Shown piece after piece: positions 1,965 to 41,406 of a stretch of 42,900 nucleotides of DNA. Each line of letters opens with the position of its first letter. The stretch's first letter is position 1. Under the pieces are notes generated by a model. The model did no database searches. It had not been told where the DNA came from and saw only the letters and a program-made list of their open reading frames with translations. This DNA comes from an uncultured Desulfobacteraceae bacterium (GTDB lineage Bacteria; Desulfobacterota; Desulfobacteria; Desulfobacterales; UBA5616): assembly GCA_964440555.1 (NCBI GenBank), contig CAYTSY010000008.1, positions 1 to 42,900 on the forward strand. The letters are read 5' to 3'. Made by a program: the position numbers and the translations under genes.

Positions 1965-3738
1965 AGTATCAGAAATCAAATTAAAGATGGTCCATTGGGC
2001 AGCAGATGCCATTTTTTCCACGGTTATTTTTTGCGGGCTGATTTTCCCGGGGTGTTCCGCTTTTCGGCATCCCTCCCCCCTCAAACAGCCTGCCACGGGC
2101 GTATTGAGCCCATCTGATGAAAAGTCCGGGACTCAAAACGGGAATTCATTTTTTTTCTTTGCAAAATCCCAACTGGACCTCAAACAAGGAGACACGGATA
2201 AGGCTGTTCAAAATCTTAAACAGGCTATAGAACTTGATCCGAATGTCTTGTTTCTGAAAAGGGAGCTGGCGCAGCTCCATTGGCAGCGCAAAGAAGCCGA
2301 GGCTGCTGATGCCATTGTCTCAGATTTAATGTCCAAGGATCCGGATGATATCGAAAACCTGATGCTTTACGCGAGAATCAAGCATGGAATGAATGAACTG
2401 GATGAAGCCAAATCCGCCTATGAAAAAGTGATTGCAAAGGATCCGAAACAAAAAAACATTTATTTGCTGTTGGGTGGATTATACATGGATGAAAGCAACC
2501 CGGACTTCGCTGTCCAGGTCTACCAAAAGCTGCTGAAACAATTTCCGGAAGATTTTGCCGGTTACTATCTGATGGCACAGGCGCAGACATTAAAGAGAAA
2601 ACCGGTTGAAGCGGAACAAAATTTTCTCAAGGCGCTGGAAATCGAGCCCGAACTCGATGAAGCCCGATACGAGCTCATTGCGCTATATAAAGCCAAAAAC
2701 CGGGGTATCGGCAATGAAAAGATTATCGGTCTGTATTTGGAGATGCTGGCCAGAAACCCGAACAATATCCGTGCGTCCATGGAATTGGGATATTTTTACC
2801 GGCAAATCGGGCGGTCTGCGGAAGCCGATAAAATTTTTACGGCATTGGGTAAAAGGAGCCTGACCGATAAATATGTGATCCAGCATGTGCTCCAGTTCTA
2901 TCTGGAGCAACAAAAATTCGATGAAGCGCTGGCTATTTTAAGACAAATGCTGCACGGCGCTCCAGAGAGTTCTGAGATCGAGTATATCATCGGAATTGCC
3001 TATGACGGGAAAAAAGAAAATGAGGCCGCGATACATCACTTAAAACGCGTTGATCCGGATTCACGTTTTTTCCAGAATGCCGTGACGCACATCGCGTTTT
3101 TATACCAGGAATCCGGAAAAACAGAAGAAGCCATTGCCTATCTGGAAGAAGTGATTGATCATGCGCCCCGCAATGTTGAACCCAGGCTTTATTTAGGGGC
3201 TCTTTACGAGGAGTCTGAACTGTTTGAGAAAGCCGAGGCCGTGTTAAAGGAAGGAATCGGGATTGAACCGGATAACCCGAAATTCTTTTTCCGGCTTGGC
3301 GTGGTTTATGACAAGTGGGGGAAAAAAGACGATTCGATCGCGATGATGAAAGAGGCTGTCCGGATCGATCCAAAAGATGCCAATTCGCTGAATTATTTGG
3401 GATACACCTATGCTGAGATGGGCAAGAATCTGGACGAGGCCGAGCGCCTGGTGCGCGAAGCCCTGAAATACAAACCGGATGACGGGTATATCATTGATAG
3501 CCTGGGATGGGTGTATTTTAAAAAAGGCGAATATGAAAAAGCTCTTTTATTTTTAAAAAAAGCTATCCAACGGGTTCCCGAAGATCCAACCATCCTTGAA
3601 CATCTGGGAGACGTTTACCTTAAGGCCAATAATCAAAAAAAAGCCCTTGAATTCTATCAGCAGTCCATGATGAATGCAACCGAGGGAAAAGACAATCTGG
3701 ATAAAAAAATCAAGGAACTGATCAATCTGGGGTATTGA
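1942..3738 (+). CDS. TPR-repeat protein, probably secreted or a lipoprotein
   Basis: 598 aa with many 34-aa TPR-like units (A..Y.kAl.ldP). The N-terminal hydrophobic stretch ends in FPGC. Alternative starts are at 1951 and 1987. It overlaps the rpoH end. Confidence 0.8.
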   Translation: MQQMKNNKVSEIKLKMVHWAADAIFSTVIFCGLIFPGCSAFRHPSPLKQPATGVLSPSDEKSGTQNGNSFFFFAKSQLDLKQGDTDKAVQNLKQAIELDPNVLFLKRELAQLHWQRKEAEAADAIVSDLMSKDPDDIENLMLYARIKHGMNELDEAKSAYEKVIAKDPKQKNIYLLLGGLYMDESNPDFAVQVYQKLLKQFPEDFAGYYLMAQAQTLKRKPVEAEQNFLKALEIEPELDEARYELIALYKAKNRGIGNEKIIGLYLEMLARNPNNIRASMELGYFYRQIGRSAEADKIFTALGKRSLTDKYVIQHVLQFYLEQQKFDEALAILRQMLHGAPESSEIEYIIGIAYDGKKENEAAIHHLKRVDPDSRFFQNAVTHIAFLYQESGKTEEAIAYLEEVIDHAPRNVEPRLYLGALYEESELFEKAEAVLKEGIGIEPDNPKFFFRLGVVYDKWGKKDDSIAMMKEAVRIDPKDANSLNYLGYTYAEMGKNLDEAERLVREALKYKPDDGYIIDSLGWVYFKKGEYEKALLFLKKAIQRVPEDPTILEHLGDVYLKANNQKKALEFYQQSMMNATEGKDNLDKKIKELINLGY

Positions 3739-6557: not shown

Positions 6558-6646
6558 GTTGATGGTTGACCGTTGACCATTGATGGTTGTAATCTTTTTT
6601 CAACTTTCAACTTTCAACTTTAAACTTTCAACTTTCAACTTTAAAC
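6558..6646. repeat. Two adjacent heptamer arrays: (GTTGAYS)x5 at 6558-6590 and (CAACTTT/AAACTTT)x6.5 at 6601-6646
   Basis: Direct reading gives GTTGATG GTTGACC GTTGACC ATTGATG GTTGT, an 11-nt spacer, then CAACTTT CAACTTT CAACTTT AAACTTT CAACTTT CAACTTT AAAC. GTTG and CAAC are complementary at every heptad. Confidence 0.9.
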
Positions 6647-6648
6647 AT

Positions 6649-7392
6649 ATGGTAAAAGCCGAAAAACGCAGTTACAGGAACCTCATCAATCAAGAAACGT
6701 TAAAAACATACAGAATCATTGTTAAGGAAACGGACCTGTATGTGCATACAAAAACCGATTTGACGGAACTGGCCGCTGAATCGGTGCTTCGCTTAAGGGG
6801 ATATATAGAATCCTATATTAAAAGGTTTCCCGAATTTTTCAGTACGCTCAACCCATGGCGTGATCCCGGGCCCTGTCCGGAAATCATCCGCGATATGATT
6901 GATGCAGGAAATACAGCGGGGGTCGGCCCGATGGCTGCTGTTGCGGGCGCCATCGCGGAGCGTGTGGGCAGGGACCTGTTAAGGCATACGGATGAGGTTA
7001 TCATAGAAAACGGGGGCGATACATTTATCAAAATCCATTGTCCGGTTTCCGCAGGCATATACGCCGGCGGTTCCTTACTGAGTCTGCGTGTGGGTCTGCG
7101 TATCGATTCTTCGGAGGATCCGGTTTCCGTGTGCACCTCATCCGGGACGGTGGGTCACTCCCTGAGCTTTGGAAAGGCTGATGCGGTTTGTGTAAAATCC
7201 GCCTCATGCGCTCTTGCCGATGCGGCTGCAACGGCAATCGGAAACAGGGTGAAAAAGGCTTCTGATATTCCGGATGCGGTTACATTCGGAAAAGAAATCC
7301 CCGGCGTGGACGGTCTTGTCGTGATTTTCAGAGAGTCGATGGGGATATGGGGAAACCTCGAAGTGATACCTCTTCAGGGAAAAAAACCTTGA
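6649..7392 (+). CDS. UPF0280 family protein (ApbE-superfamily-like)
   Basis: Contains KETDLYV, GVGPMAAVAGAIAERVG and IIENGGDTF motifs characteristic of UPF0280. The ORF-track start at 6580 translates the heptamer repeat (FQLSTFNFKLSTFNFK), so the ATG at 6649 is preferred. Confidence 0.7.
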   Translation: MVKAEKRSYRNLINQETLKTYRIIVKETDLYVHTKTDLTELAAESVLRLRGYIESYIKRFPEFFSTLNPWRDPGPCPEIIRDMIDAGNTAGVGPMAAVAGAIAERVGRDLLRHTDEVIIENGGDTFIKIHCPVSAGIYAGGSLLSLRVGLRIDSSEDPVSVCTSSGTVGHSLSFGKADAVCVKSASCALADAAATAIGNRVKKASDIPDAVTFGKEIPGVDGLVVIFRESMGIWGNLEVIPLQGKKP

Positions 7393-8341: not shown

Positions 8342-10954
8342 ATGAAAATCACCCCGATGCTCAAACAATATCTTTCCATAAAGGAGCAATATCCTGATGC
8401 GATTTTATTCTATCGGATGGGTGATTTTTATGAAATGTTTTTTGAAGATGCAGCCGTTGCCTCAAAAATCCTTGAGATTACGCTCACCTCCCGGAATAAG
8501 AACGACACCCAGGCCGTTCCGATGTGCGGGGTTCCGTACCGGGCGGCCAGGGGGTATATCGCGAGACTTATCGAAACCGGGCATAAAGTGGCCATCTGCG
8601 ACCAGATGGAAGATCCGGCTTTATCAAAAGGGCTGGTGAAAAGGGAAGTCGTTCGGCTCATCACGCCCGGGATGATTGTCGAAGATGAATATCTGGATGG
8701 GAAGACGAATAATTTTATTCTGTCGGCGGTCCGTCAGGGCGACATGCTGGGGATATCCTTTCTGGATATTTCAACCGGAACATTCCGGTTGACCCAATCA
8801 CACGATGCGGAAGCGGTTGTCGACGAAATTCAACGGGTATCTCCCAGTGAAATGATTTTCCCGGAGGCTGCAAAATCCGATTCTTTTTTCATGACGTTAA
8901 CTAATTTGTTCGAAGAAAAAGTCATCGGGTATCTGGATAATGGCGTTTTTGAATATGGAAAAGGCCGGGAGAAGCTGATGCGGCACTTTCAAACCCTGTC
9001 TTTGGAAGGGTTTGGATGCGAAGATTTTACGGCCGGCGTGGGAGCAGCAGGCGCCTTGATCCATTACGTGGGGGAAACCCAAAAGCAGCGGCTTTCCCAT
9101 ATCGCCGGCATCGAAACCTATTCCTTGGACCAGTTTTTGCTGATCGATGAAACCAGTTGCAAAAATCTGGAGTTGATCGGAAACATCCGCACGGGAACCC
9201 GGCAGGGGACTTTGTTCCACGTTATCGATCATACCGTCACGGCCATGGGGGCGAGGCACTTAAAAGAATGGCTGCGATATCCCTTGATTGATCCCCAGCG
9301 GATCGAGTCCCGGTTGGATGCTGTCGGAGAAGGCGTTGAAAAAATGTTTACGGCCGGACAAATCAGAGAAGCATTAGGTTCCGTGTACGATTTGCAGCGC
9401 ATCAGCAGCAAAGTCGCCCTGGGACATTGCAATGCCAGAGATCTTGTAGCCCTGAAGCATTCCCTGAAAATGCTGCCGGTAATCCGGTCACGGATTGAAA
9501 CCTTTGTTTCCCCGCTTTTCCAGTGGCAGACGGATAACCGGCCGTTAAGTGACCTGGCGGATGTCATCGAGCGGGCCATTCGGGAAGATTCGCCGCCGGT
9601 GATCAACGAAGGCGGCATTATTAAACCCGGATTCAATGAAGCGCTTGACGAATTATTGGAAATCAGCACAAATGCCAAAGGATGGCTGGCAAAACTCGAG
9701 ACCCGGCAAAAAGAAGAGACCGGCATCAATTCGTTGAAGGTCCGGTACAATAAGGTTTTCGGGTATTATATCGAGGTTTCCCGTGCCCATGCGAATTCGG
9801 TTCCCGAAACATTTATCCGCAAGCAGACGCTGGTCAATGCGGAACGGTATATCACCGAAGAACTGAAGGCTTTTGAAACCAATGCCTTAAGCGCTCAGGA
9901 GAAACGGGCGTCGCTGGAATATGAGATTTTTCATGAAGTCCGCAACCAGGTCATGTTGAACCGGGCGCTGATTCAACAGGCAGCGGCCTGGCTGGCCGAG
10001 GTGGATTGCCTCCTTTGTCTGGCCCACGTAGCCGATGAAAACAACTATTGCCGGCCGCAAATAAAAACGGACGGCCGCATTATTATCGAGAACGGTCGTC
10101 ATCCGGTGGTTGAAAAAATGATCGCGGGCGAACGTTTTGTTCCCAATTCGATCGCCCTTGACAATGAAAAAAATCAGGTTCTGATCATCACCGGGCCTAA
10201 TATGGCGGGAAAATCAACGATTCTCAGGCAGGTGGCATTAACCGTCCTTATGGCTCAGATGGGGTCGTTTGTTCCGGCCGCCAAATCTTCGGTCAGCATC
10301 ACCGACCGGATTTTTACCCGGGTCGGGGCCTTGGACAACCTGTCCGGCGGTCAAAGCACCTTTATGGTGGAGATGCAGGAAACCGCCAATATTTTGCATA
10401 ATGCGACTCCCAACAGTCTGGTGATCATGGACGAAATCGGAAGGGGCACCGGCACCTTCGACGGATTGAGCATCGCCTGGGCGGTTGCGGAATATTTGCA
10501 TGACGTCAATCATAAAGGCGTAAAAACGCTTTTCGCCACCCATTACCATAAATTAACCGACCTGACGCGTTACAATAAAAGGGTCAAAAACTATCATGTT
10601 GCGGTCAAGGAGTGGAATGATGAAATTATTTTTTTAAGAAAACTTGCCGAAGGAGGTACCAATCGGAGCTACGGCATACAAGTCGCCCGGTTGGCGGGTC
10701 TTCCTTCAAAGGTTATCGAACGCGCAAAAAAAATATTATTTCATGTTGAGAACGGGGAAGACGCCATCGGTGGTCTGTCCCCTTCGGAAGAAGGAGAAGC
10801 GGTCTTTAAAAAAGGCCATATCCAACTTTCCTTATTTAAAAAACAGGAAAGTTATATTTTGGAAGCATTGCGGCGGCTTGATATATCCAAACTGACGCCC
10901 ATGGACGCCATGAACTGGCTGCATGATTTGGCGGAAAGAGCAAAAGCGTCATGA
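8342..10954 (+). CDS. mutS: DNA mismatch repair protein MutS
   Basis: 870 aa. Has N-terminal PMLKQYL..K...PDAILFYRMGDFYEMFF, Walker A GPNMAGKST, and STFMVEM and DEIGRGT motifs. Confidence 0.97.
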   Translation: MKITPMLKQYLSIKEQYPDAILFYRMGDFYEMFFEDAAVASKILEITLTSRNKNDTQAVPMCGVPYRAARGYIARLIETGHKVAICDQMEDPALSKGLVKREVVRLITPGMIVEDEYLDGKTNNFILSAVRQGDMLGISFLDISTGTFRLTQSHDAEAVVDEIQRVSPSEMIFPEAAKSDSFFMTLTNLFEEKVIGYLDNGVFEYGKGREKLMRHFQTLSLEGFGCEDFTAGVGAAGALIHYVGETQKQRLSHIAGIETYSLDQFLLIDETSCKNLELIGNIRTGTRQGTLFHVIDHTVTAMGARHLKEWLRYPLIDPQRIESRLDAVGEGVEKMFTAGQIREALGSVYDLQRISSKVALGHCNARDLVALKHSLKMLPVIRSRIETFVSPLFQWQTDNRPLSDLADVIERAIREDSPPVINEGGIIKPGFNEALDELLEISTNAKGWLAKLETRQKEETGINSLKVRYNKVFGYYIEVSRAHANSVPETFIRKQTLVNAERYITEELKAFETNALSAQEKRASLEYEIFHEVRNQVMLNRALIQQAAAWLAEVDCLLCLAHVADENNYCRPQIKTDGRIIIENGRHPVVEKMIAGERFVPNSIALDNEKNQVLIITGPNMAGKSTILRQVALTVLMAQMGSFVPAAKSSVSITDRIFTRVGALDNLSGGQSTFMVEMQETANILHNATPNSLVIMDEIGRGTGTFDGLSIAWAVAEYLHDVNHKGVKTLFATHYHKLTDLTRYNKRVKNYHVAVKEWNDEIIFLRKLAEGGTNRSYGIQVARLAGLPSKVIERAKKILFHVENGEDAIGGLSPSEEGEAVFKKGHIQLSLFKKQESYILEALRRLDISKLTPMDAMNWLHDLAERAKAS

Positions 10955-10965
10955 TGTAGCAATAA

Positions 10966-10993
10966 GTTGAAAGTTTAAAGTTTAAAGATGAAA
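10966..10993. repeat. Heptamer array GTTGAAA GTTTAAA GTTTAAA GATGAAA
   Basis: Read directly. It is the reverse complement of the CAACTTT/AAACTTT units at 6601-6646. Confidence 0.85.
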
Positions 10994-12674: not shown

Positions 12675-12684
12675 GTCAACGAAA

Positions 12685-12716
12685 GTTTTGAGTGTTGAGT
12701 TTTGGGTTTTGAGTGG
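12685..12716. repeat. Heptamer array GTTTTGA GTGTTGA GTTTTGG GTTTTGA GTGG
   Basis: Read directly. It shares a 20-nt identical stretch (GTGTTGAGTTTTGGGTTTTG) with 33099-33118. Confidence 0.85.
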
Positions 12717-12861
12717 AACGTTTATATGCTTTAAACGATGGAAAAATGAAACATCCGGTTGACGGCAGGGTTGTGAAAATGATAAATGCCCGCAAGGCGT
12801 TGGGAATGCAGGCCCACTGAATTTGATTGTAATTGCATTTATATGGCCAAAGGAGCGACAA

Positions 12862-13650
12862 ATGAGTTACACATCGATACTTTTTTCCGTTGAACACCAA
12901 ATTGCCCTGATCACTTTCAACCGTCCGAAGGCCCTCAACGCGTTGAACAGCGCTTTGTTGGATGAATTTTCCGATGCCTTGCATCAGGTTGCAAAAGACG
13001 ATGAAATCAAAGTCCTTGTTCTGACCGGCGCAGGGGAAAAAGCATTTGTGGCGGGTGCGGATATAACCGAGCTTTCCCGATTGAATTCTCTTGAAAGCAA
13101 GGTATTTGCTCAAAAAGGACATTCCGTCATGAATATGTTGCAGGCCCTGCCGATACCGGTTGTGGCGGCAGTAAACGGCTTTGCGTTGGGAGGGGGCAGC
13201 GAAATCGCGCTTGCTTCTGATTTTATATATGCGGCTGCAAACGCCAAATTTGGTTTTCCCGAAATCAATCTGGGGCTCATTCCGGGATTTGGCGGCACGC
13301 AGCGGGGGCCAAGGGCCGTCGGGAAGAATCTGGCCAAGGAGATGATATTTACGGGCAAAATAATTTCCGCGCAAGAAGCTATGGAAATCGGCATGGTGAA
13401 CAAGGTCTGCGCGCCTGAATTTTTAATGGAAGAAGTCTTTAAAATCGCCCGGGACATGGCATCAAAAGGCCGTGTGTCGCTGAGAGCAGCCAAAAGAGCC
13501 ATAAACAGCGGCATGAATGTTGACCTCACCACCGGATGTGAGATCGAGATCAATGAATTCGCCCTTTGTTTTTCCAGCGAGGACGCCAAAGAAGGAACTT
13601 CCGCATTTCTGGAAAAAAGAAAAGCGCAATTTAAAGCCGGGCTGAAATAA
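12862..13650 (+). CDS. Enoyl-CoA hydratase (crotonase family)
   Basis: Crotonase pattern ITFNRPKALNAL ... VLTGAGEKAFVAGADI ... AAVNGFALGGGSEIAL. The ATG at 12862 is preceded by AAGGAG. Confidence 0.85.
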   Translation: MSYTSILFSVEHQIALITFNRPKALNALNSALLDEFSDALHQVAKDDEIKVLVLTGAGEKAFVAGADITELSRLNSLESKVFAQKGHSVMNMLQALPIPVVAAVNGFALGGGSEIALASDFIYAAANAKFGFPEINLGLIPGFGGTQRGPRAVGKNLAKEMIFTGKIISAQEAMEIGMVNKVCAPEFLMEEVFKIARDMASKGRVSLRAAKRAINSGMNVDLTTGCEIEINEFALCFSSEDAKEGTSAFLEKRKAQFKAGLK

Positions 13651-14973: not shown

Positions 14974-15027
14974 ATGCCCGAATAAAAACCCGGGCTACAA
15001 ATGACAAGCGAAAAAAAGGGGGATATC

Positions 15028-15459
15028 ATGCGAGTTGAACAGATATCGGTGTTTCTGGAAAATAAGGCCGGAAGACTTGCTGAAGTAACGTCGATCCTCA
15101 GTGAGGCCGGGGTGAATATACGCGCGCTTTCCGTTGCCGATACTTCCGAGTTCGGCGTCCTTCGCCTGATCGTGGACGACAACGGCAAGGCTGAAAAAGC
15201 CCTCAAGGACAACGGGTTCAGCGTGGGGAAAACTCATGTCGTGGCAATCGAAGTGGAAGATAAGCCCGGCGGCCTTCATAACATACTGGAATTGCTGACC
15301 CGGGCAAATATCAATGTGGAGTACATGTACTCCCTGGTTACGCAGAGAAACGGCAATGCCGTTTTGGTTTTTCGTTTTGACCATACGGATGAGGCAATTG
15401 AACTTCTGGGCAAAAGCGGAATCCCGGTCATTAACGGCAGCAACGTCCATGCTATGTGA
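15028..15459 (+). CDS. ACT-domain (amino-acid-binding) protein
   Basis: Two ACT-like repeats (ISVFLENKAGRLAEVTSILSEAGVNI; AIEVEDKPGGLHNILELLTRANINV). The ATG at 15028 follows GGGGGA. Confidence 0.75.
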   Translation: MRVEQISVFLENKAGRLAEVTSILSEAGVNIRALSVADTSEFGVLRLIVDDNGKAEKALKDNGFSVGKTHVVAIEVEDKPGGLHNILELLTRANINVEYMYSLVTQRNGNAVLVFRFDHTDEAIELLGKSGIPVINGSNVHAM

Positions 15460-15566
15460 AGTTGAAAGTTGAAAGCGGGAAAAGTCTAAAGCGGGAAAAG
15501 TTGAAAGAAGATGGTTGTCATCCCTGATCTTCTTGCTTTCAGCTTTAAACTTTAAGCTTTCAACTC
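15458..15566. repeat. Heptamer-periodic inverted-arm element (GTTGAAA/GCGGGAAAA units versus GCTTTCA/GCTTTAA/ACTTTAA units)
   Basis: The left arm is gaaGTTGAAAGTTGAAAGCGGGAAAAGTCTAAAGCGGGAAAAGTTGAAAGAAGAT. The right arm is ATCTTCTTGCTTTCAGCTTTAAACTTTAAGCTTTCAACTC. There is a central perfect 8-bp stem AAGAAGAT/ATCTTCTT, with imperfect pairing outwards. Confidence 0.85.
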
Positions 15567-15657
15567 ATATAAAGAGTGTGAGAGATAGTCTCTCAGATTA
15601 AACGCGTAAGAACCCCAAACCATTTTAAAAACAGCCTGTTGGAAAAAGGAGGAACAC

Positions 15658-16833
15658 ATGACCCTGAAAAAAATGTTAGTCGTCGTTTCTGTTTGTTTGA
15701 TCGGATTTGGCTGGATTGCAGCGCCGGCGATCGCCGCCGAAAAGGAAGCCTACAAGGTCGGAGCCGTTTTTTCCGTTACCGGTCCTGCTTCTTTCCTGGG
15801 AGATCCTGAAAAAAAGACGGCTGAAATGCTCGCCGAACAGATTAATAAGGCCGGCGGCGTCAACGGCCATCCTCTGGAGCTAATCGTGTATGACGATGAG
15901 GGAGATGCGACGAAATGCAATCTGATGGTCAAAAAGCTGATCACCAAGGACAACGTGTGCGCCATCATCGGTCCATCAGTCACGGGTTTGTCCGTTGCGG
16001 TTGTCCCGGTCGTAGAGGAACACAAAATTCCCATGATATCCTGTGCGGCCAGTTATAAGATTGTCACGAATGAGAAAACAGGCAAACCGTACCACTGGGT
16101 ATTCAAAACGCCCCAGTCGGACTCCATGGCGGTTGAAGCGATTTATGCGCACATGAAGAAAAAAGGGATCAAAAAAATCGCCGTTATGAGCGTCAACAGC
16201 GGTTTTGGAACCTCGGGACGCGACGAACTGTTGAGGCTCGCGCCGAATTTTGGAATGGAAATCGCAGCGGATGAAAAGTACGGCCCAAAAGATACCGACA
16301 TGACGGCCCAACTGACAAAAATTAAGGGCAAGGGCGTACAGGCCATCGTCAATTGGTCCGTCGGCCCGACGCAGGTAACCGTTTTGCGGAACTGGAAAGA
16401 CCTGGGCATGACGGATATCACCTTTTACCAGAGCCATGGATTCGGCAGCCGTGAAAACATCAAACTGGCGGCAGGGGCCGCGGAAGGCGTATTTTGTCCA
16501 TTGGGCGCCTGCAATATTGCTGAAATACTCCCCAAGGATCATCCCCAAAAAGCAGTGGCCATGAAGTACCTGGAAGATTACAAAGCCAAGTTCAACGAAC
16601 CGCTGAGTTCTTTTGGCGGGCATGCCTGGGATTCGCTCCATCTCGTCGTCAATGCAATGGCCGCCGTGGGATGCGATAAGGCGGGCATAAGAGATCATGT
16701 TGAAAAAACAACCGGGTTTGTAGGACAACACGGCGTATTCAATTTCAGCCCTGATGACCACAACGGTCTGAAGACGGAAACAGCCTTTAGCATGGTCGTC
16801 GTCAAAGAAGGCGATTGGTCGCTTGCGGACTGA
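15658..16833 (+). CDS. ABC transporter substrate-binding protein (LivJ/K-like, branched-chain or aromatic amino acids)
   Basis: Signal peptide, then the YKVGAVFSVTGPASFLGDPEKK pattern typical of Leu/Ile/Val-binding family proteins. Confidence 0.85.
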   Translation: MTLKKMLVVVSVCLIGFGWIAAPAIAAEKEAYKVGAVFSVTGPASFLGDPEKKTAEMLAEQINKAGGVNGHPLELIVYDDEGDATKCNLMVKKLITKDNVCAIIGPSVTGLSVAVVPVVEEHKIPMISCAASYKIVTNEKTGKPYHWVFKTPQSDSMAVEAIYAHMKKKGIKKIAVMSVNSGFGTSGRDELLRLAPNFGMEIAADEKYGPKDTDMTAQLTKIKGKGVQAIVNWSVGPTQVTVLRNWKDLGMTDITFYQSHGFGSRENIKLAAGAAEGVFCPLGACNIAEILPKDHPQKAVAMKYLEDYKAKFNEPLSSFGGHAWDSLHLVVNAMAAVGCDKAGIRDHVEKTTGFVGQHGVFNFSPDDHNGLKTETAFSMVVVKEGDWSLAD

Positions 16834-16869
16834 TCCTTAATCTGCTTTATTCTCCAACGACAACCGCGT

Positions 16870-16899
16870 GAGGGCGGCATTTGGCCGCCCTCATGTTTT
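16870..16899 (+). terminator. Intercistronic GC-rich hairpin with a short T tract (attenuator or partial terminator between binding-protein and permease genes)
   Basis: GAGGGCGGC-atttg-GCCGCCCTC forms a perfect 9-bp stem, followed by atgTTTTc. Confidence 0.5.
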
Positions 16900-16917
16900 C
16901 ACTCAACGGTTTCATAT

Positions 16918-20278: not shown

Positions 20279-20292
20279 AGGCGGGTAAAAAA

Positions 20293-20376
20293 CCGTGAAT
20301 CGTAAATCGTAAATGGTGACGGGAAGATGTCGGCGTCGGACTTGTCACGATTTACGGTTTACGCGTTACGATTCAT
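20293..20376. repeat. Heptamer-periodic long imperfect hairpin (CGTGAAT CGTAAAT CGTAAAT GGTGAC / GTCACGATTTACGGTTTACGCGTTACGATTCA)
   Basis: CGTAAATGGTGAC (20308-20320) pairs with GTCACGATTTACG (20344-20356) with one mismatch. TGAATCGTAA (20296-20305) pairs with TTACGATTCA (20367-20376). The right arm has one extra heptad. Confidence 0.85.
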
Positions 20377-20464
20377 AATTGACAATTATTCTGGTATATT
20401 ATATAATACAAAAATTCATGACAAAAACGACCTTTTGCAGGTCAACCTTTTTCTGGCAATCCAA

Positions 20465-20716
20465 ATGAACCAGGACAAATCTTTTTATCAACTGATTTGG
20501 GGGTGGCTGCTTGCTTTAGCAGGTGTCGGCGTTTTTTTCAGGGTACCGCAGGTGATGCCCAAAATTGAACAAATCAGGCAGTATGCTCCGGTTTTACCTT
20601 ATATCAAATTCTGTCTATACCTGTTGGGCGTTATCCTTTTAGGCGGCGGTGCAAAAAAGATTTTTAAATATTATGAAAAAAAAGCTGAAGGTGAAAGGTG
20701 GAAGCCAAAATGCTGA
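20465..20716 (+). CDS. Small two-TM membrane protein, hypothetical
   Basis: From the ATG at 20465: MNQDKSFYQLIWGWLLALAGVGVFF... YIKFCLYLLGVILLGGG. Its stop overlaps the downstream ATG (ATGCTGA). The upstream part of the ORF-track call lies in the repeat. Confidence 0.5.
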   Translation: MNQDKSFYQLIWGWLLALAGVGVFFRVPQVMPKIEQIRQYAPVLPYIKFCLYLLGVILLGGGAKKIFKYYEKKAEGERWKPKC

Positions 20717-24952: not shown

Positions 24953-25005
24953 CCGGTTGGCCGTTACCGGTTACCGGTTATCCGTTATCTGTTATCCGTT
25001 ATCCA
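24953..25005. repeat. Heptamer array, 7.5 copies (CGGTTGG CCGTTAC CGGTTAC CGGTTAT CCGTTAT CTGTTAT CCGTTAT CC)
   Basis: GTT recurs exactly every 7 nt at 24956, 24963, 24970, 24977, 24984, 24991 and 24998. The array lies in the divergent maf / 25021 intergenic region. Confidence 0.9.
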
Positions 25006-33093: not shown

Positions 33094-33615
33094 TCAGAGT
33101 GTTGAGTTTTGGGTTTTGGGTTTTGAGTTTTGGGTCATGGCCCGGGTCACTTTTTCAAAAAGAGTTTCCCGGACGTTTTTATCCGTCGCATACTTGAGGA
33201 TCAGCAGATAGATCCCTTCCCGGATGAGATCCGACTCATCTTTATTTCTGTTGCATTCAACACGCTTGAGTACTCCCAGCAATTCAGAGACTTCCGGGCT
33301 GATCCGGGTCCTGACCTCGATGGACAGGGGGCCCATGGCTTCGAAGGGGATTTCTTCGCTTCCTTCCCGGCAGGCGTCGTCGTGAGATGCATACTGAACG
33401 ATGAGGCGGTAGCACTCCATGGCCTTGTCCGCAAATCGCTGCTTTAAAAACTCTTCGCCCAGAGACGTGATGATTTTCCTGGCCCAGAAGGCTTCATCGC
33501 TGTCTGAGCCGTATTTTTCGAGTACTTTTGTAGCTGATTCAAGCGCACGGTCATAGCACGCGCAACGTTCCAGGACCATGGCCCTGACAAGATCCTTATC
33601 CATCTGTTCCTCCAT
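33094..33615 (-). CDS. Conserved hypothetical protein; C-terminal part resembles a ribbon-helix-helix (CopG-like) domain
   Basis: 173 aa with five Cys (RCAC, ECY, DACR, VEC). The C-terminal LSIEVRTRISPEVSELLGVLKRVE...DLIREGIYLLILKY fits a beta-alpha-alpha pattern. The last 13 codons translate the heptamer repeat. Confidence 0.5.
   Translation of the reverse strand: MEEQMDKDLVRAMVLERCACYDRALESATKVLEKYGSDSDEAFWARKIITSLGEEFLKQRFADKAMECYRLIVQYASHDDACREGSEEIPFEAMGPLSIEVRTRISPEVSELLGVLKRVECNRNKDESDLIREGIYLLILKYATDKNVRETLFEKVTRAMTQNSKPKTQNSTL
33099..33136. repeat. Heptamer array GTGTTGA GTTTTGG GTTTTGG GTTTTGA GTTTTGG GTC
   Basis: Read directly. It uses the same units as 12685-12716 and overlaps the 3' end of CDS 33094-33615. 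Confidence 0.85.
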
Positions 33616-35602: not shown

Positions 35603-35665
35603 AGCTTAAAGTTACAAGCTACAAGCTGAAAGCCAAAAGCTTGTATTTTCAACTTTCAACTTTCT
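35603..35665. repeat. Nine-unit heptamer array AGCTTAA AGTTACA AGCTACA AGCTGAA AGCCAAA AGCTTGT ATTTTCA ACTTTCA ACTTTCT
   Basis: Read directly. It contains the 7-bp stem ACAAGCT (35621-35627) / AGCTTGT (35638-35644). It lies between the porin stop and the yeeE start, inside the operon. Confidence 0.85.
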
Positions 35666-37638: not shown

Positions 37639-39042
37639 ATGGAAATCGCCGCTTATTGGAAGACCATAGCGGATACGCTGCAGGACGGGCTGTTGGTGAT
37701 TGACCCGGAAGGAAACATCCGGGCGGCCAATCAGGCAGCTTCGCGGATCACCGGTTATTCAAAAGAGGAACTCGTCGGCAAGTCCTGCCGCATTCTCAAT
37801 TGCACCGGCTGCAACATCATCGGCAAAGGCCCGGGTGAAAACTGGTGCGGTCTTTTTTCAAAAGGGGAGGTAAGGGAAAAAAAGTGCCTGATCACCAACC
37901 TGGATCGCCGGGCTGTTCATATCCTCAAATCGGCCAAGGTGTTGCGCGATGATGACGGCCGGATAGTCGGCGCCGTGGAAAATCTTACCGATATCACCGA
38001 TAAAGTCAGACAACAGCAGGAGTTGACCCGCCTGCGGCAGACCTTTCACCTGGATGACGGCTATTGCGGGATATTAGGCAAATCCCCGGTCATGCAAAAC
38101 CTGTTTGCGCTCATCGAAAACGTTTCCCAATCCGATGCACCGGTCATCATTTCGGGTCAGAGCGGAACCGGAAAAGAATTGGCGGCCCGCGCTATACATG
38201 AAACCGGTCCCCGTAAGAAGAAACCCTTCATCAAGGTCAATTGCGCAGCCTTGAACGAAAATGTCCTGGAAAGTGAACTCTTCGGCCATGTCCGGGGAGC
38301 ATATACCGGTGCTGACAGGACGCGGATCGGCAGGTTTGAAGCGGCTCACGAAGGGACTATTTTTTTAGATGAAATCGGAGACTTGCCGTTATCCATCCAG
38401 GTTAAGCTGCTGCGTGTTTTAGAAGAAAAGAAGATCGAGCGCGTGGGGGATCACCGACCGATCTCCGTGGACGTCAGAATCATCACCGCCACACATAAAA
38501 ACCTGGAGTCTCTGATCGAAAAACAACTGTTTCGGGAAGATCTGTTTTTTCGGATCAATGTATTTCCCCTGCATTGTCCTTCCCTGGTTGATCGCATCGA
38601 AGATATCCCCATCATTGCACAACACTTTATCCACCAAAGCGCCGCAAAAACAGGGAAAAAGATCCTCGGTCTGACGCCGGAAGCCATGGAAAAACTGATG
38701 GCCTATCCCTGGCCCGGCAATATCCGCGAACTTAGAAATACCATTGAGTATGCTTTTGTCCTCTGTCCCAGCGGAGGCATTGATGTGCGGCATTTGCCGC
38801 CCAACGTGGCAAGAGGCCAAATACTTGACCGTAAAGGACCAAGCGGCGTGCAACGTTTTGGCGATGCGCAGAGGGATCGTATCGTTGATGCGCTCAACCG
38901 GGCCGGCCAAAGCCGGACCGATGCCGCCCGGCTCCTGGGTATAAGCCGTGTAACATTATGGAAGCAAATGAAAAAATATAACATCACCCCTGAGGCAGAC
39001 AGCCAGGGAATCCAAAAGCCAACGCTGGTCGATGAATCGTGA
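37639..39042 (+). CDS. Sigma54-dependent transcriptional activator with N-terminal Cys-rich PAS domain
   Basis: PAS region (LLVIDPEGNIRAANQAASRITGYSKEELVGKSC). AAA+ domain with Walker A GQSGTGKE, ESELFGHVRGAYTGA (GAFTGA-type loop) and LDEIGD. C-terminal Fis-type HTH AARLLGISRVTLWKQMKKY. The ATG at 37639 is preceded by AGGAGG. Confidence 0.9.
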   Translation: MEIAAYWKTIADTLQDGLLVIDPEGNIRAANQAASRITGYSKEELVGKSCRILNCTGCNIIGKGPGENWCGLFSKGEVREKKCLITNLDRRAVHILKSAKVLRDDDGRIVGAVENLTDITDKVRQQQELTRLRQTFHLDDGYCGILGKSPVMQNLFALIENVSQSDAPVIISGQSGTGKELAARAIHETGPRKKKPFIKVNCAALNENVLESELFGHVRGAYTGADRTRIGRFEAAHEGTIFLDEIGDLPLSIQVKLLRVLEEKKIERVGDHRPISVDVRIITATHKNLESLIEKQLFREDLFFRINVFPLHCPSLVDRIEDIPIIAQHFIHQSAAKTGKKILGLTPEAMEKLMAYPWPGNIRELRNTIEYAFVLCPSGGIDVRHLPPNVARGQILDRKGPSGVQRFGDAQRDRIVDALNRAGQSRTDAARLLGISRVTLWKQMKKYNITPEADSQGIQKPTLVDES

Positions 39043-39053
39043 ATCGTGGCGGG
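39031..39053. repeat. Short heptamer array GATGAAT CGTGAAT CGTGGCG
   Basis: Uses the same unit type as 20294-20320 and spans the stop codon of the sigma54 activator. Confidence 0.7.
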
Positions 39054-39103
39054 AAAATGCCAAAAGTATATTTTTATTATGTATGGTGGGGAGACAATGA
39101 AAC

Positions 39104-41290: not shown

Positions 41291-41406
41291 CGGAAGTCAG
41301 GTGCCAGATGTCGGAAGTCGGAACTTTGGATTTTTTAGGTTAAAAGATTTTTTCCTTTATTCTGACTTCTGCCTTCTGACTTCTGGATCCCGGGTCTTCT
41401 GTCAGC
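41291..41406. repeat. Heptamer-periodic inverted arms (GGAAGTCAGG.../...TCTGACTTCTGCCTTCTGACTTCTGG)
   Basis: GAAGTCAG (41293-41300) is complementary to CTGACTTC at 41362-41369 and 41376-41383. The right-arm units are TCTGACT TCTGCCT TCTGACT TCTGGAT. Confidence 0.8.

Follow-up and report, generated by a model that had tools for sequence, protein, structure and literature searches.

Between an ACT-domain gene and the first gene of an ABC transporter operon lies a 109-nt segment (15458-15566, designated S4) that consists of short repeats and can fold into a hairpin. The locus raises the question of whether S4 is a functional element of this one gap or one copy of a repeat that is dispersed among many gaps. 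We examined ten sites, S1-S10, in the window, the whole 42,900-nt stretch of DNA that was analysed, and determined periodicity by Tandem Repeats Finder (TRF), a scan of our own, and lag autocorrelation. The comparison material consisted of the 43-kb window and short metagenomic contigs, with contigs of a sister lineage standing in for strains of the source species. Why tandem heptamers outnumber all other periodic repeats between the genes of prokaryotes has been an open question since 1990, and the contig and its relatives provide an additional, independent clade rich in such arrays. The reading that we favour, with modest confidence, is that S4 is one copy of lineage-specific, STRR-like heptad families that are resized by slippage, are probably transcribed within operons, and may fold upon themselves.

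The S4 gap and its flanking genes contain the following features:
15001-15459 (+), ACT-domain pair gene (Pfam ACT_8, 2.9e-29)
15459-15512 (+), 5' arm of S4: AAGTTGA twice, then a 16-nt unit (AAAGTTG plus AAAGCGGGA) three times, ending in AAGAAGAT
15505-15534 (+), core stem of S4: AAGAAGAT (15505-15512) and ATCTTCTT (15527-15534), inverted repeat I10
15527-15565 (+), 3' arm of S4: ATCTTCTT, then GCTTTCA GCTTTAA ACTTTAA GCTTTCA ACT
15566-15657 (+), non-repeat stretch that completes the gap: TGAGAGATAGTCTCTCA (15579-15595) as a small hairpin, then ATTAAACGCGTAA and the Shine-Dalgarno sequence AAAGGAGG
15658-16833 (+), gene for a LivK-type periplasmic binding protein (Pfam Peripla_BP_6, 2.7e-55), the first gene of the ABC transporter operon

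The TGA stop codon of the ACT gene (15457-15459) adjoins the first repeat unit of S4. In the 5' arm, which represents direct-repeat family D1, TRF placed a period of 7 at 15459-15475 and one of 16 at 15465-15507; the 16-nt unit is a 7+9 composite present in three copies (15465-15512). The 3' arm contains two copies of a 14-nt unit, with TRF periods of 7 and 14 at 15536-15565. The strict 7-nt periodicity that the preliminary description attributed to S4 was therefore overstated. The core stem proposed there is borne out, as its two strands are 100% complementary around a 14-nt loop (15513-15526), and the arms pair with each other in several registers (inverted repeats I1-I9). The whole hairpin has a minimum free energy of -34.2 kcal/mol (z=-3.48), which was equalled by none of 200 shuffles. 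The stem is AT-rich and is followed by CATATAAAG, and thus there is no GC-rich stem with a U-tract. The remainder of the gap (15566-15657) is partly conserved with the sister lineage (alignment A3 against L236/L237).

The other nine sites are:
6558-6646 (+), S1, hairpin: GTTGAYS five times, then TTTCAAC seven times (TRF score 84; z=-4.7)
10964-10993 (+), S2, solo array: 3.4 copies of GTTGAAA/GTTTAAA, starting 11 nt past the mutS stop
12684-12716 (+), S3, solo array: 4.4 copies of GTTTTGR, starting 10 nt past the stop of an amidase gene
20290-20376 (+), S5, hairpin: 3.6 copies of CGTRAAT, a unique centre (GTGACGGGAAGATG...), and 3.9 copies of ACGATTT
24953-25005 (no strand assigned), S6, solo array: 6-7 copies of CCGTTAY in a divergent gap
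33097-33136 (-), S7, solo array: CAAAACY five times on the sense strand
35603-35665 (-), S8, hairpin: AAAGTTG twice, then GCTTNNA five times on the sense strand (z=-5.9)
39031-39059 (+), S9, half-element: GATGAAT CGTGAAT CGT and GTGGCGGGAAAATG
41291-41406 (+), S10, hairpin: five GGAAGTC-type units, then four CTTCTGA-type units

Period-7 arrays were found by TRF at all ten of these previously listed sites and at no further position in the window. When periods 2-15 were scanned, only periods 7 and 14 gave runs scoring at least 12, four each, and 20 Markov shuffles yielded no run at this threshold (T=12) versus the four observed for period 7. The lag-7 autocorrelation is 0.348 in intergenic DNA (z=9.1 against shuffles; z=6.7 for lag 14) and 0.246 in coding DNA. 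Gap by gap, nine of the ten array gaps exceed 300 of 300 shuffles, and S9 (39031-39053, 2.3 copies) is marginal, with P=0.10 for its portion outside the ORF. In these shuffle tests the window arrays are longer than expected by chance, as is characteristic of long SSRs. Of the 18 intergenic gaps with a length of 50 nt or more, 10 contain arrays, and the arrays account for 635 of the 2542 intergenic bases (~25%). At least six unit types occur within 43 kb, and three families recur at two to four distant sites each, in agreement with the earlier claim: GTTGAAA-type units at S1, S2, S4, and S8, GTTTTGR at S3 and S7, and CGTRAAT at S5 and S9. No motif is common to all units, as no tetranucleotide is prominent; 11 of 62 units contain CTGA, and the same count applies to AATC, AATA, and TCAA.

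The arrays affect gene calls. Mechanical ORFs start inside S1 (TTG at 6580), the loop of S5 (ATG at 20327), S8 (TTG at 35652), and S10 (GTG at 41301), which supports the earlier remark that arrays are translated into spurious N-terminal extensions. S7 is translated as the final 13 residues of the ORF at 33094-33615, and the S9 array provides the stop codon of a sigma-54 activator gene. In practice, gene calls acquire false start codons and C-terminal tails from the arrays, and Desulfobacterales MAGs are fragmented by them during assembly.

Five of the ten sites (S1, S4, S5, S8, and S10) fold on the gene strand with z-scores between -3.8 and -6.5, and the fold z-scores gave no significant hairpin on the gene strand at S2, S3, S6, S7, and S9. 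The long bulged hairpins that the preliminary description proposed for many sites thus occur at five of the ten. S1 fills the gap from the stop of an HD gene (6536) to the ATG at 6649; it ends 2 nt ahead of this ATG, which lacks a Shine-Dalgarno sequence, and each of its heptads has roughly five paired and two mismatched bases. The genes that flank S1 overlap in L235, and 29 nt separate them in the contig to which protein P0002 belongs. S5 (-39.3 kcal/mol, z=-6.5) is flanked by the stop of a livF-like gene (20278) and a perfect sigma-70 consensus identified by a promoter scan (20379-20407). S8 begins 3 nt past the stop of a DUF3373 gene and folds with -22.6 kcal/mol as sense and -12.4 kcal/mol as antisense RNA. 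S10 occupies the gap that begins at the stop of a Zn-ribbon gene (41284) and leads to a DegP-like gene with its Shine-Dalgarno sequence and ATG (41424). Its arms (41291-41325 and 41360-41385) lie on opposite strands, the 3' arm consists of CTTCTGA CTTCTGC CTTCTGA CTTCTGG, and the folding energy is -47.1 kcal/mol in sense versus -32.0 kcal/mol in antisense orientation.

Three of the five window hairpins (S5, S8, and S10) are more stable by 10-15 kcal/mol as sense than as antisense RNA, which hints at an RNA-level constraint; over the relatives, the same comparison was not significant (6 versus 5). An inverted partner array lies within 220 nt of 24 of the 72 arrays of relatives versus 1 of 72 in a reversed-unit control. 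Among 30 solo arrays, 23 have a purine-rich sense strand (baseline 0.56, P=0.017), with 15 of the 30 at a purine content of at least 0.7 and one at 0.3 or less. This orientation bias shows that selection acts on solo arrays, which weighs against the inferred view that they are mostly harmless. In relatives of the window, purine-rich arrays reach as far as the ACT gene's Shine-Dalgarno sequence.

In the window, each of the nine arrays that lie in co-directional gaps starts between 12 nt inside the upstream gene end (S9) and 21 nt past the stop, and for eight of them the preceding stop is nearer than the start that follows. The corresponding counts in relatives are 22 and 13 (P=0.18, with a crude ORF model), and stop-proximal placement is a tendency only. 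Divergent gaps, which contain promoters only, are depleted of arrays (2 of 49 sites versus 14% of the intergenic bases). The terminator scan scored no array hairpin as a terminator, its sole match within an array being a 5-bp stem in the 3' arm of S10 (41382-41394), and no U-tract tail follows any array hairpin. The array hairpins were rejected as intrinsic (Rho-independent) terminators because of this lack of a terminator call and of a GC-rich stem with a U-tract. Rfam covariance models matched only a tRNA-Arg at the gathering threshold and had no match to the arrays up to E=1.

The genomes closest to the window are Desulfobacteraceae/Desulfobacterales MAGs, and the best match reaches 81% amino-acid identity in the genome collection and 74% in metagenomes. 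Related Desulfobacterales DNA amounting to 1.84 Mb contains 101 heptamer runs, of which 84 are intergenic, and 24 octamer runs; the other periods account for at most five runs each, the period-14 echo aside. The array density in the clade reaches 6 sites per 10 kb, and the 72 arrays of relatives comprise 54 canonical units. Across 80 species, this density shows over-dispersion (chi-square 208, df 79). No arrays were found in 71 kb of the nearest species in the genome collection (L001-L004), and the syntenic relative L235 (21 kb) has none in the five gaps orthologous to S1-S5.

Array lengths turn over fast. Where the flanks are 97-99% identical, none of 19 orthologous array sites has the same length (median difference 51 nt), and where they are at least 99.9% identical, the length is kept at 10 of 13 sites. 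Three contigs with 98-99% identical flanks have array regions of 456, 189, and 409 nt in one and the same gap. Clean indels distinguish L035 from L093 (28 nt, four units) and L073 from L113 (39 nt), and the orthologue of S9 in L239 is longer by one heptad (7 nt). The comparison of copy numbers called for in the preliminary description, carried out on relatives, thus revealed variation; two clean cases amount to exactly one unit and four units. Such whole-unit changes between close relatives, the signature of slippage, occur in the relatives and in the sister lineage.

The gap between the ACT and periplasmic binding protein (PBP) genes has a length of 22-129 nt and is hairpin-free in L235 and L001-L004. 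The sister lineage L236/L237, with ~81% nucleotide identity to the window, carries a CGTRAAT-type hairpin that immediately follows the ACT stop and belongs to the same unit family as S5 and S9, and its gap outside the hairpin aligns with the window. Heptad hairpins that differ from each other occupy this gap in the window, L236, L018, L024, and L056. S7 has an orthologous array in the sister lineage (L238). A close alignment (A4) of S5 with the L239 orthologue of S9 extends over ~40 nt and covers the non-repeat 14-mer GTGACGGGAAGATG, which at up to two mismatches occurs in the window at S5 and S9 only. Since S5 and S9 have this 14-mer in common, they are dispersed copies, and S9, as judged from its sequence, is a paralogue of the 5' half of S5. 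In an alignment of six sites, with a mean column identity of 42%, only the heptads and a short centre are in common. CGGGAARA was rejected as a marker of the element because coding DNA also contains it often (18 matches versus 7.7 expected), and the 14-mer was used instead.

We propose the following origin of S4. A few unit families recur at unrelated intergenic sites, and about one array in three has a nearby inverted partner, which enables the strand or transcript to fold into a long hairpin. Arrays would grow and shrink by replication slippage, and whole elements, each consisting of an array and a short unique centre, would be copied into new gaps. They would persist only where they do little harm, directly behind stops in co-directional gene strings; unpaired arrays would have their purine-rich, C-poor strand as the sense strand, and paired arrays would loop themselves out of the mRNA. 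The S4 hairpin is probably part of the paaK-ACT message. There, it may act at most as a modest 3'-end or intercistronic stem-loop, as a barrier to 3' exonucleases or by partially uncoupling the livK-type operon, and it would be neither a canonical terminator nor a sequence-specific regulatory site. Besides the orientation bias of solo arrays and the greater sense-strand stability of S5, S8, and S10, two points speak against this reading. A mechanism of mobility is not visible: target-site duplications are absent, the heptads are the only ends of the elements, and Pfam detected neither a transposase nor a RAYT in 30 window proteins, a set that leaves out ~15 ORFs at 23.6-33.1 kb. Furthermore, the different heptad hairpins in the ACT-PBP gap could equally mean that a hairpin is selected there.

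If so, the elements would be cis-acting RNA hairpins selected at gene and operon boundaries, and the heptads merely building material. They could serve as 3'-exonuclease barriers, RNase III sites, weak factor-dependent terminators, or devices of stop-start translational coupling, roles equal to those proposed for hairpin-forming STRRs (PMC2670836). Selected hairpins would fit the positions directly behind stop codons, the location of S5 where an operon ends and a perfect sigma-70 consensus follows, that of S1 just before an ATG without a Shine-Dalgarno sequence and between genes that overlap in a relative, the differing hairpins in the ACT-PBP gap of at least five lineages, and the greater sense-strand stability of S5, S8, and S10. 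We nevertheless regard them as unlikely, since the hairpin-free gap in L235 and L001-L004 makes such a function dispensable, U-tract tails are missing, the sense-antisense comparison is null over the relatives, the stems have two systematic mismatches per heptad and unequal unit numbers in their arms, and half of the window arrays have no partner arm. Pure in-place microsatellites, formed by independent slippage from chance heptamer seeds, neutral, and without dispersal or function, would account for the whole-unit indels, the rapid turnover, the high unit diversity (54 canonical units in 72 arrays), and the variant units in adjoining blocks within arrays; heptamer SSRs are also common in prokaryotes (PMC6344855; Mrazek et al. 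2007, as cited in PMC4679880). This explanation is very unlikely in view of the sequence outside the repeat that is common to S5, S9, and the L236 element, the unit families at two to four unrelated sites in 43 kb and at non-orthologous sites of two lineages, the excess of inverted partners over the control, the purine bias of the sense strand, and the strong over-dispersion of density between genomes.

Paralogous copies at unrelated sites, presence or absence between close lineages, and the inverted-arm architecture are features of non-autonomous, MITE- or REPIN-like transposable elements, in which the heptad arms would be terminal inverted repeats and the transposase would be encoded elsewhere; in Geobacter metallireducens, IS elements are located at fixed distances from such arrays (PMC2700814). 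We consider this origin very doubtful. The elements have neither target-site duplications nor a fixed length or ends, their arms are unequal in unit number, the loops are unrelated between copies, and solo arrays and half-elements are common; the 30 scanned proteins contain no transposase or RAYT, and 43 kb leaves one possible in the rest of the genome. It is highly improbable that the arrays are binding sites in duplex DNA for a global regulator or nucleoid-associated protein, paired on opposite strands. Inverted pairs at variable distance match the description from Geobacter (PMC2700814), S10 fits the class-3 unit MTYCTGA, the presence or absence of arrays in a genome would suit that of a trans-acting factor, and contiguous heptads bind proteins elsewhere, for example TTTTGAT in the ctxAB promoter (bioRxiv 10.1101/2021.05.14.444153). 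However, the window with its six or more unit types and the relatives with their 54 would require many factors or none, divergent gaps are depleted of arrays, copy numbers drift freely, and a transcription-direction bias is unexpected of a duplex-DNA site. An assembly artefact or a chance pattern, the outcome that the preliminary description had named as refuting the arrays, is practically impossible, even though repeats can confuse short-read assembly and an N-run adjoins arrays in L024. The lag-7 signal contradicts it, similar arrays recur in independent MAGs and metagenome contigs by the dozen, arrays are present at the S7 and S9 sites when the sister lineage is assembled independently (ENA, Logan), and near-identical contigs of different assemblies have identical arrays (L046 and L126, L015 and L090).

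A trans-acting partner system, either a protein that reads single strands in a 7-nt register or an enzyme that copies modules of an array and a centre, is quite unlikely, and it would explain together why abundance is all-or-none, why unit families are clade-specific, and why the sense strand is biased towards purines. If such a partner existed, the arrays would be a genome-wide post-transcriptional layer and not junk, composed of intercistronic hairpins and of Shine-Dalgarno-like purine platforms before start codons.

The preferred reading, in which S4 belongs to dispersed heptad families, relates the window to several known systems. Hairpin-forming STRRs of cyanobacteria are known, for example, from the hupS-hupL gap, where transcript stabilisation or translational coupling was proposed (PMC2670836). 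The window arrays resemble STRRs in their tandem 7-nt units, their many non-coding copies in a few families, several per genome, their intergenic position, often between co-transcribed genes, and their formation of hairpins. STRR hosts are filamentous or heterocystous cyanobacteria, whereas the window host belongs to the Desulfobacterales, and the window units GTTGAAA, CGTRAAT, GTTTTGR, CCGTTAY, and GGAAGTC are not STRR1-3. The units of Mazel et al. from 1990 are reportedly CCCCAGT (STRR1), TTGGTCA (STRR2), and CAACAGT (STRR3), and no doublets of them occur in the window at up to one mismatch. Relatives contain CCAATGA arrays, which we take to be a reverse-complement rotation of the STRR2 unit TTGGTCA, and this STRR2-equivalent unit is present in 10 of their loci. 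Since the window lacks STRR1, STRR3, and TAACTGA units and its host is one of the Desulfobacterales, the arrays are an analogue of STRRs and not members. The likeness seen in the preliminary description is thus one of kind, in the dispersed heptamer families and hairpins, and does not extend to membership, since the units and the host phylum differ. The length turnover, sister-lineage replacement, and shared non-repeat centres shown here were not found in the STRR literature examined.

The preliminary description was aware of no equivalent in Desulfobacterota, but the paired arrays of Geobacter metallireducens, published in 2009, are a precedent at the level of the phylum (PMC2700814). They comprise 49 elements with four GGACCGG heptanucleotides, eight opposite-strand pairs of five tandem MTYCTGA heptanucleotides, 24 pairs of tandem octanucleotide arrays, and 21 pairs of tandem nonanucleotide arrays, and were proposed to be IHF/HU-type binding sites (PMC2700814). 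In both systems, there are three to five tandem units, mostly in opposite-strand pairs at variable distance, with tens of copies, present in one species and absent from its relative. The CTTCTGA units in the 3' arm of S10, and of S10 only, fit the class-3 consensus MTYCTGA, in a comparison with the published consensus. The elements described by Aklujkar et al. (2009) form BLAST-alignable families with fixed numbers of four or five units (PMC2700814), whereas the arrays of the window and its relatives have variable copy numbers, arms of up to eight units, and a transcription-direction bias. In the literature searched, we found no description of heptamer arrays in Desulfobacterales specifically.

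Heptamers are the most abundant intergenic periodic repeat across prokaryotes according to the SPADE survey (PMC6344855), and they are the commonest among the long SSRs with 5-11-nt units of Mrazek et al. 2007, as cited in PMC4679880. The arrays studied here agree with long SSRs in the dominance of period 7, intergenic position, slippage-type length change, and phylogenetically scattered, genome-specific abundance. The surveys treat arrays as independent, whereas here families recur, non-repeat segments are shared, and inverted pairs are formed. TAACTGA repeats occur in marine Beggiatoaceae and some Cyanobacteria and Bacteroidetes (MacGregor 2015, PMC4679880). These are likewise direct intergenic heptamers, present in two to six or more copies; they favour one orientation with respect to the ORF that follows and are missing from close relatives. 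The Beggiatoaceae arrays consist essentially of one unit, are located just upstream of start codons, and include one inverted set only (PMC4679880), whereas the window arrays have many units, are anchored at stop codons, and are half in inverted pairs. TAACTGA doublets are absent from the window and occur in 1 of 160 loci of relatives.

REP/BIME and REPIN sequences of enterobacteria and pseudomonads are imperfect palindromes of 20-40 nt with fixed sequence that are mobilised by RAYT transposases, and REPs protect upstream mRNA from 3' exonucleases. The window arrays are similarly short, intergenic, hairpin-forming, and dispersed in families, usually after stop codons within operons. REPs have no internal heptad periodicity, and the 30 scanned window proteins include no RAYT. 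The six-site alignment contains no conserved palindrome of 20-40 nt such as REP or REPIN copies would have in common. The hmw genes of Haemophilus influenzae are preceded by 7-bp repeats that vary in copy number between strains and can tune expression. Together with the TTTTGAT heptads of the Vibrio cholerae ctxAB promoter, they resemble the window arrays in contiguous 7-bp repeats with copy numbers differing between strains. They are single promoter loci with known protein partners, whereas the arrays described here are genome-wide and mostly behind stop codons.

Heptad arrays are therefore not new in kind, as heptamer repeats, hairpin-forming STRRs, and the Geobacter paired arrays were described before. 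The clade makes several of their properties readable from sequence, namely the fast length turnover, the replacement of hairpins in one gap, paralogues with common non-repeat centres, the transcription-direction bias, and strong differences from genome to genome. Additionally, (GTTGAAA)3 was found in 24 and (TCAGAGG)3 in 38 viral contigs, versus 10 and 2 for scrambled units. With one scrambled control each, this is only suggestive of some heptad units being favoured.

The heptad arrays in the window, a complete NCBI contig of 42,900 bp from a Desulfobacterales bacterium, lie far beyond chance. Tandem Repeats Finder recovered all ten period-7 sites listed in the preliminary description, and no period-7 arrays in the window beyond them. 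The sites are S1 (6558–6646), S2 (10964–10993), S3 (12684–12716), S4 (15459–15565), S5 (20290–20376), S6 (24953–25005), S7 (33097–33136, minus strand), S8 (35603–35665, minus strand), S9 (39031–39059), and S10 (41291–41406). Our own scan of the window for periods 2–15 found runs only at period 7 and its echo 14, and 0 runs in Markov shuffles. According to the curated gene map used for the intergenic statistics of the window, 18 intergenic gaps are 50 nt or longer; 10 of them contain arrays, which cover 635 of 2542 intergenic bases. The lag-7 autocorrelation is 0.348 in the gaps (z = 9.1), compared to 0.246 in coding DNA. The enrichment over a shuffled background is borne out gap by gap, with all 300 shuffles exceeded in nine gaps and a marginal result for S9. 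Unit types recur at distant sites, as had been noticed, with three families present at two to four window sites each: GTTGAAA-type units at S1, S2, S4, and S8, GTTTTGR at S3 and S7, and CGTRAAT at S5 and S9. Besides S4, inverted array pairs are formed by S1, S5, S8, and S10 (folding z from −3.8 to −6.5), and S2, S3, S6, S7, and S9 are solo arrays. As a feature, the arrays are both real and striking, and their earlier characterization is correct in all but two respects: the strict periodicity claimed for S4, and the novelty claim.

Across many different prokaryotes, tandem heptamers are reported to be more abundant than any other intergenic periodic repeat, with no known function (PMC6344855; Mrazek 2007, as summarized in PMC4679880). 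The 7-bp STRRs of cyanobacteria fold into hairpins between genes that are transcribed together, and a role in transcript stabilization or translation coupling is suspected (PMC2670836). TAACTGA arrays precede start codons in marine Beggiatoaceae (PMC4679880). The statement that no equivalent had been described in Desulfobacterota is incorrect, since the genome of Geobacter metallireducens, a member of this phylum, contains 49 elements of four GGACCGG units each, and paired opposite-strand arrays, including five tandem MTYCTGA heptanucleotides, which are missing in G. sulfurreducens (PMC2700814). S10 matches the MTYCTGA consensus. The window arrays contain no STRR1, STRR3, TAACTGA, or GGACCGG units, and are therefore an additional case of a known kind of repeat, and not a new kind. 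Their value lies in the comparative handles that they provide on an old open question rather than in categorical novelty.

The focal element S4 is located between the ACT-domain gene (15001–15459) and the LivK-type binding-protein gene (15658–16833), in the ACT-PBP gap, and is organized as follows.

15457–15459, plus strand: stop codon TGA of the ACT-domain gene; the S4 repeat starts at 15459
15459–15512, plus strand: S4 5' arm, AAGTTGA twice, then a 16-nt unit (AAAGTTG + AAAGCGGGA) three times
15505–15512 and 15527–15534, plus strand: S4 core stem AAGAAGAT/ATCTTCTT with a 14-nt loop
15527–15565, plus strand: S4 3' arm, units of the GCTTTCA/GCTTTAA type repeating with a period of 14 nt

The 16-nt units of the 5' arm mean that calling the 7-nt periodicity of S4 strict was an overstatement. 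The fold of S4 has an energy of −34.2 kcal/mol (z = −3.48), equalled by 0 of 200 shuffles. Since the arms can pair in many registers, the frequency of the minimum-energy structure in the ensemble is only 0.006. There is no U-tract 3' of the S4 hairpin, a terminator scan called none of the array hairpins in the window, and Rfam has no match at any window array. A textbook intrinsic terminator follows the binding-protein gene in the syntenic 21-kb relative L235 (12967–13049), and the scan found none in the equivalent window gap, 16834–16917. The paaK-ACT gap of the window is only 27 nt long, with a possible vestige, CAAATGAC, at 14990–14997.

Array lengths differ between close relatives, as the copy-number comparison suggested in the preliminary description shows when run on relatives; two clean cases correspond to exactly one and four units. 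Length is kept at 10 of 13 orthologous array sites with flank identity of at least 99.9%, and at 0 of 19 sites where the 300-nt flanks are 97–99% identical (median difference 51 nt). Clean indels measure 28 nt, or four units (L035 versus L093), and 39 nt (L073 versus L113), and three contigs that share 98–99% flank identity have array regions of 456, 189, and 409 nt in the paaK-ACT gap. The presence of arrays is lineage-specific. The five gaps of L235 orthologous to S1–S5 (0, 76, 111, 22, and 95 nt) contain none, and the ACT-PBP gap is short and array-free in the nearest species of the genome collection; the closest species-level relatives are Desulfobacteraceae MAGs with protein identity of at most 81% (LivK-type binding protein). 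A sister lineage, about 81% identical to the window in nucleotides, was reached through cluster look-ups as short contigs. It contains orthologous arrays of S7 and S9, the latter longer by exactly one heptad, which rules out the assembly artefact considered in the preliminary description. Its ACT-PBP gap has 156 nt, the distal part of which can be aligned with the window, and directly 3' of the stop carries a hairpin, CCGTGAAT CGTGAAT CGTAAAT ... GTCACGATTCACG (−23.9 kcal/mol), with units from the S5/S9 family and not the GTTGAAA family of S4. S5 aligns closely with the S9 orthologue over about 40 nt (A4), including the non-repeat 14-mer GTGACGGGAAGATG, which at up to two mismatches occurs in the window only in S5 and S9. 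S5 and S9 are therefore paralogous copies of an element composed of an array and a unique centre, not independent expansions.

In 160 relatives' loci around binding-protein-gene homologues (1.84 Mb, from species-representative genomes and metagenomes), there are 101 heptamer runs, 84 of them intergenic, 24 octamer runs, and at most five of every other period, the period-14 echo excepted. The octanucleotide arrays are the second commonest tandem class, and 8-nt units (GGTCAGAA) are interleaved within TCAGAGG heptamer arrays. Seventy-two arrays reduce to 54 canonical units, among which no common tetranucleotide stands out. Inverted pairing is frequent: a partner array lies within 220 nt of 24/72 arrays, versus 1/72 in the reversed-unit control. 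Divergent gaps are depleted of arrays, with 2 of 49 sites versus 14% of intergenic bases. Orientation is biased with respect to transcription: the purine-rich strand is the sense strand in 23 of 30 solo arrays in co-directional gaps (baseline 0.56, P = 0.017), with a purine content of at least 0.7 in 15 and at most 0.3 in one. Species differ greatly in array density, which is strongly over-dispersed (chi-square 208, df 79); 52 of 80 loci are array-free, and the mean is 0.5 sites per 10 kb, compared to 2.3 in the window. In many relatives, long purine-rich solo arrays (TCAGAGG, CAGTGAW, CCAATGA) in the paaK-ACT gap reach the Shine-Dalgarno sequence (L086 9023–9418, L012 1487–1798, L055 9322–9449, and others). 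Among viral-classified contigs (IMG/VR, L161–L234), exact (TCAGAGG)3 is present in 38 and (GTTGAAA)3 in 24, compared to 2 and 10 for scrambled units, and some are array-rich, such as L198 with nine matches in 13 kb.

Arrays may be resized by replication slippage and copied into new gaps by some route, and selection would weed out placements that do harm. From what is established for rut sites, unstructured sense RNA that is rich in C and poor in G would load Rho and cause polarity. The purine bias of the sense strand could have arisen because such placements would be selected out, and it would follow from the same filter that S7, the sole C-rich sense array of the window, is translated. Inverted pairs may be tolerated in tight operons by looping themselves out of the mRNA. 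The main rival explanation is that hairpins such as S4 are selected for a 3'-end or intercistronic stem-loop role, as the repeated occupation of the ACT-PBP gap by different heptad hairpins (in the window, the sister contig L236, L018, L024, and L056) would suggest; however, they are wholly absent from this gap in L235 and L001–L004, and the sense versus antisense folding test over the relatives is null (6 versus 5). In our view, the S4 hairpin is probably part of the paaK-ACT transcript, with at most a modest role of this type.

By our reading of the ORF and array coordinates, all nine co-directional-gap arrays start between 12 nt inside the upstream gene end (S9) and 21 nt past the stop, and two of them, S7 and S9, overlap with the upstream ORF at its end. 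S7 (33094–33136, minus strand) encodes the last 13 residues (TQNSKPKTQNSTL) of the hypothetical ORF 33094–33615, the product of which would have a different tail in the sister lineage, because the site there reads (CAAAACT)n followed by T8. The S1 array ends 2 nt upstream of an ATG lacking a Shine-Dalgarno sequence. Directly 3' of the S5 hairpin is a perfect sigma-70 consensus, TTGACA-17-TATAAT (20379–20407), the probable promoter of a gene for a small membrane protein with its start near ATG 20466. The 129-aa ORF 20327–20716, whose start falls in the loop of the S5 hairpin, is probably a spurious extension; mechanical ORF starts inside S1, S5, S8, and S10 agree with the earlier remark that ORF callers extend into arrays. 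The enoyl-CoA hydratase gene adjoining S3 (12823–13650) is missing between amidase and paaK in L235, and present in closer contigs.

In many Desulfobacterales (L026 641–745, L020 9756–9990, L039 3721–3976, and at least 20 other relatives' loci), the gene of the LivK-type binding protein is preceded by a conserved leader, GGCTGATRCAGGARGATCTCC...AGCY plus GGTTTCAGRTGAGAYCCATTTGAAAY, which is absent from the window. This leader folds into two hairpins with a few compensatory changes and matches no Rfam family; it may be a cis-regulatory RNA not described so far. In L024, near 9015–9300, an N run adjoins heptamer arrays (GGATAGA..., TTGAGGGG...), an indication that repeats of this type leave breaks or gaps in short-read assemblies. 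L108 (~3600–3680) differs from L027 (7020–7066), with 99.5% identical flanks, by an extra 52-nt palindromic insert (TTTTACCCTGTTAAATAA...TTATTTAACAGGGCAGG) adjoining a CAAAATT array; the insert resembles a small hairpin element distinct from the array.
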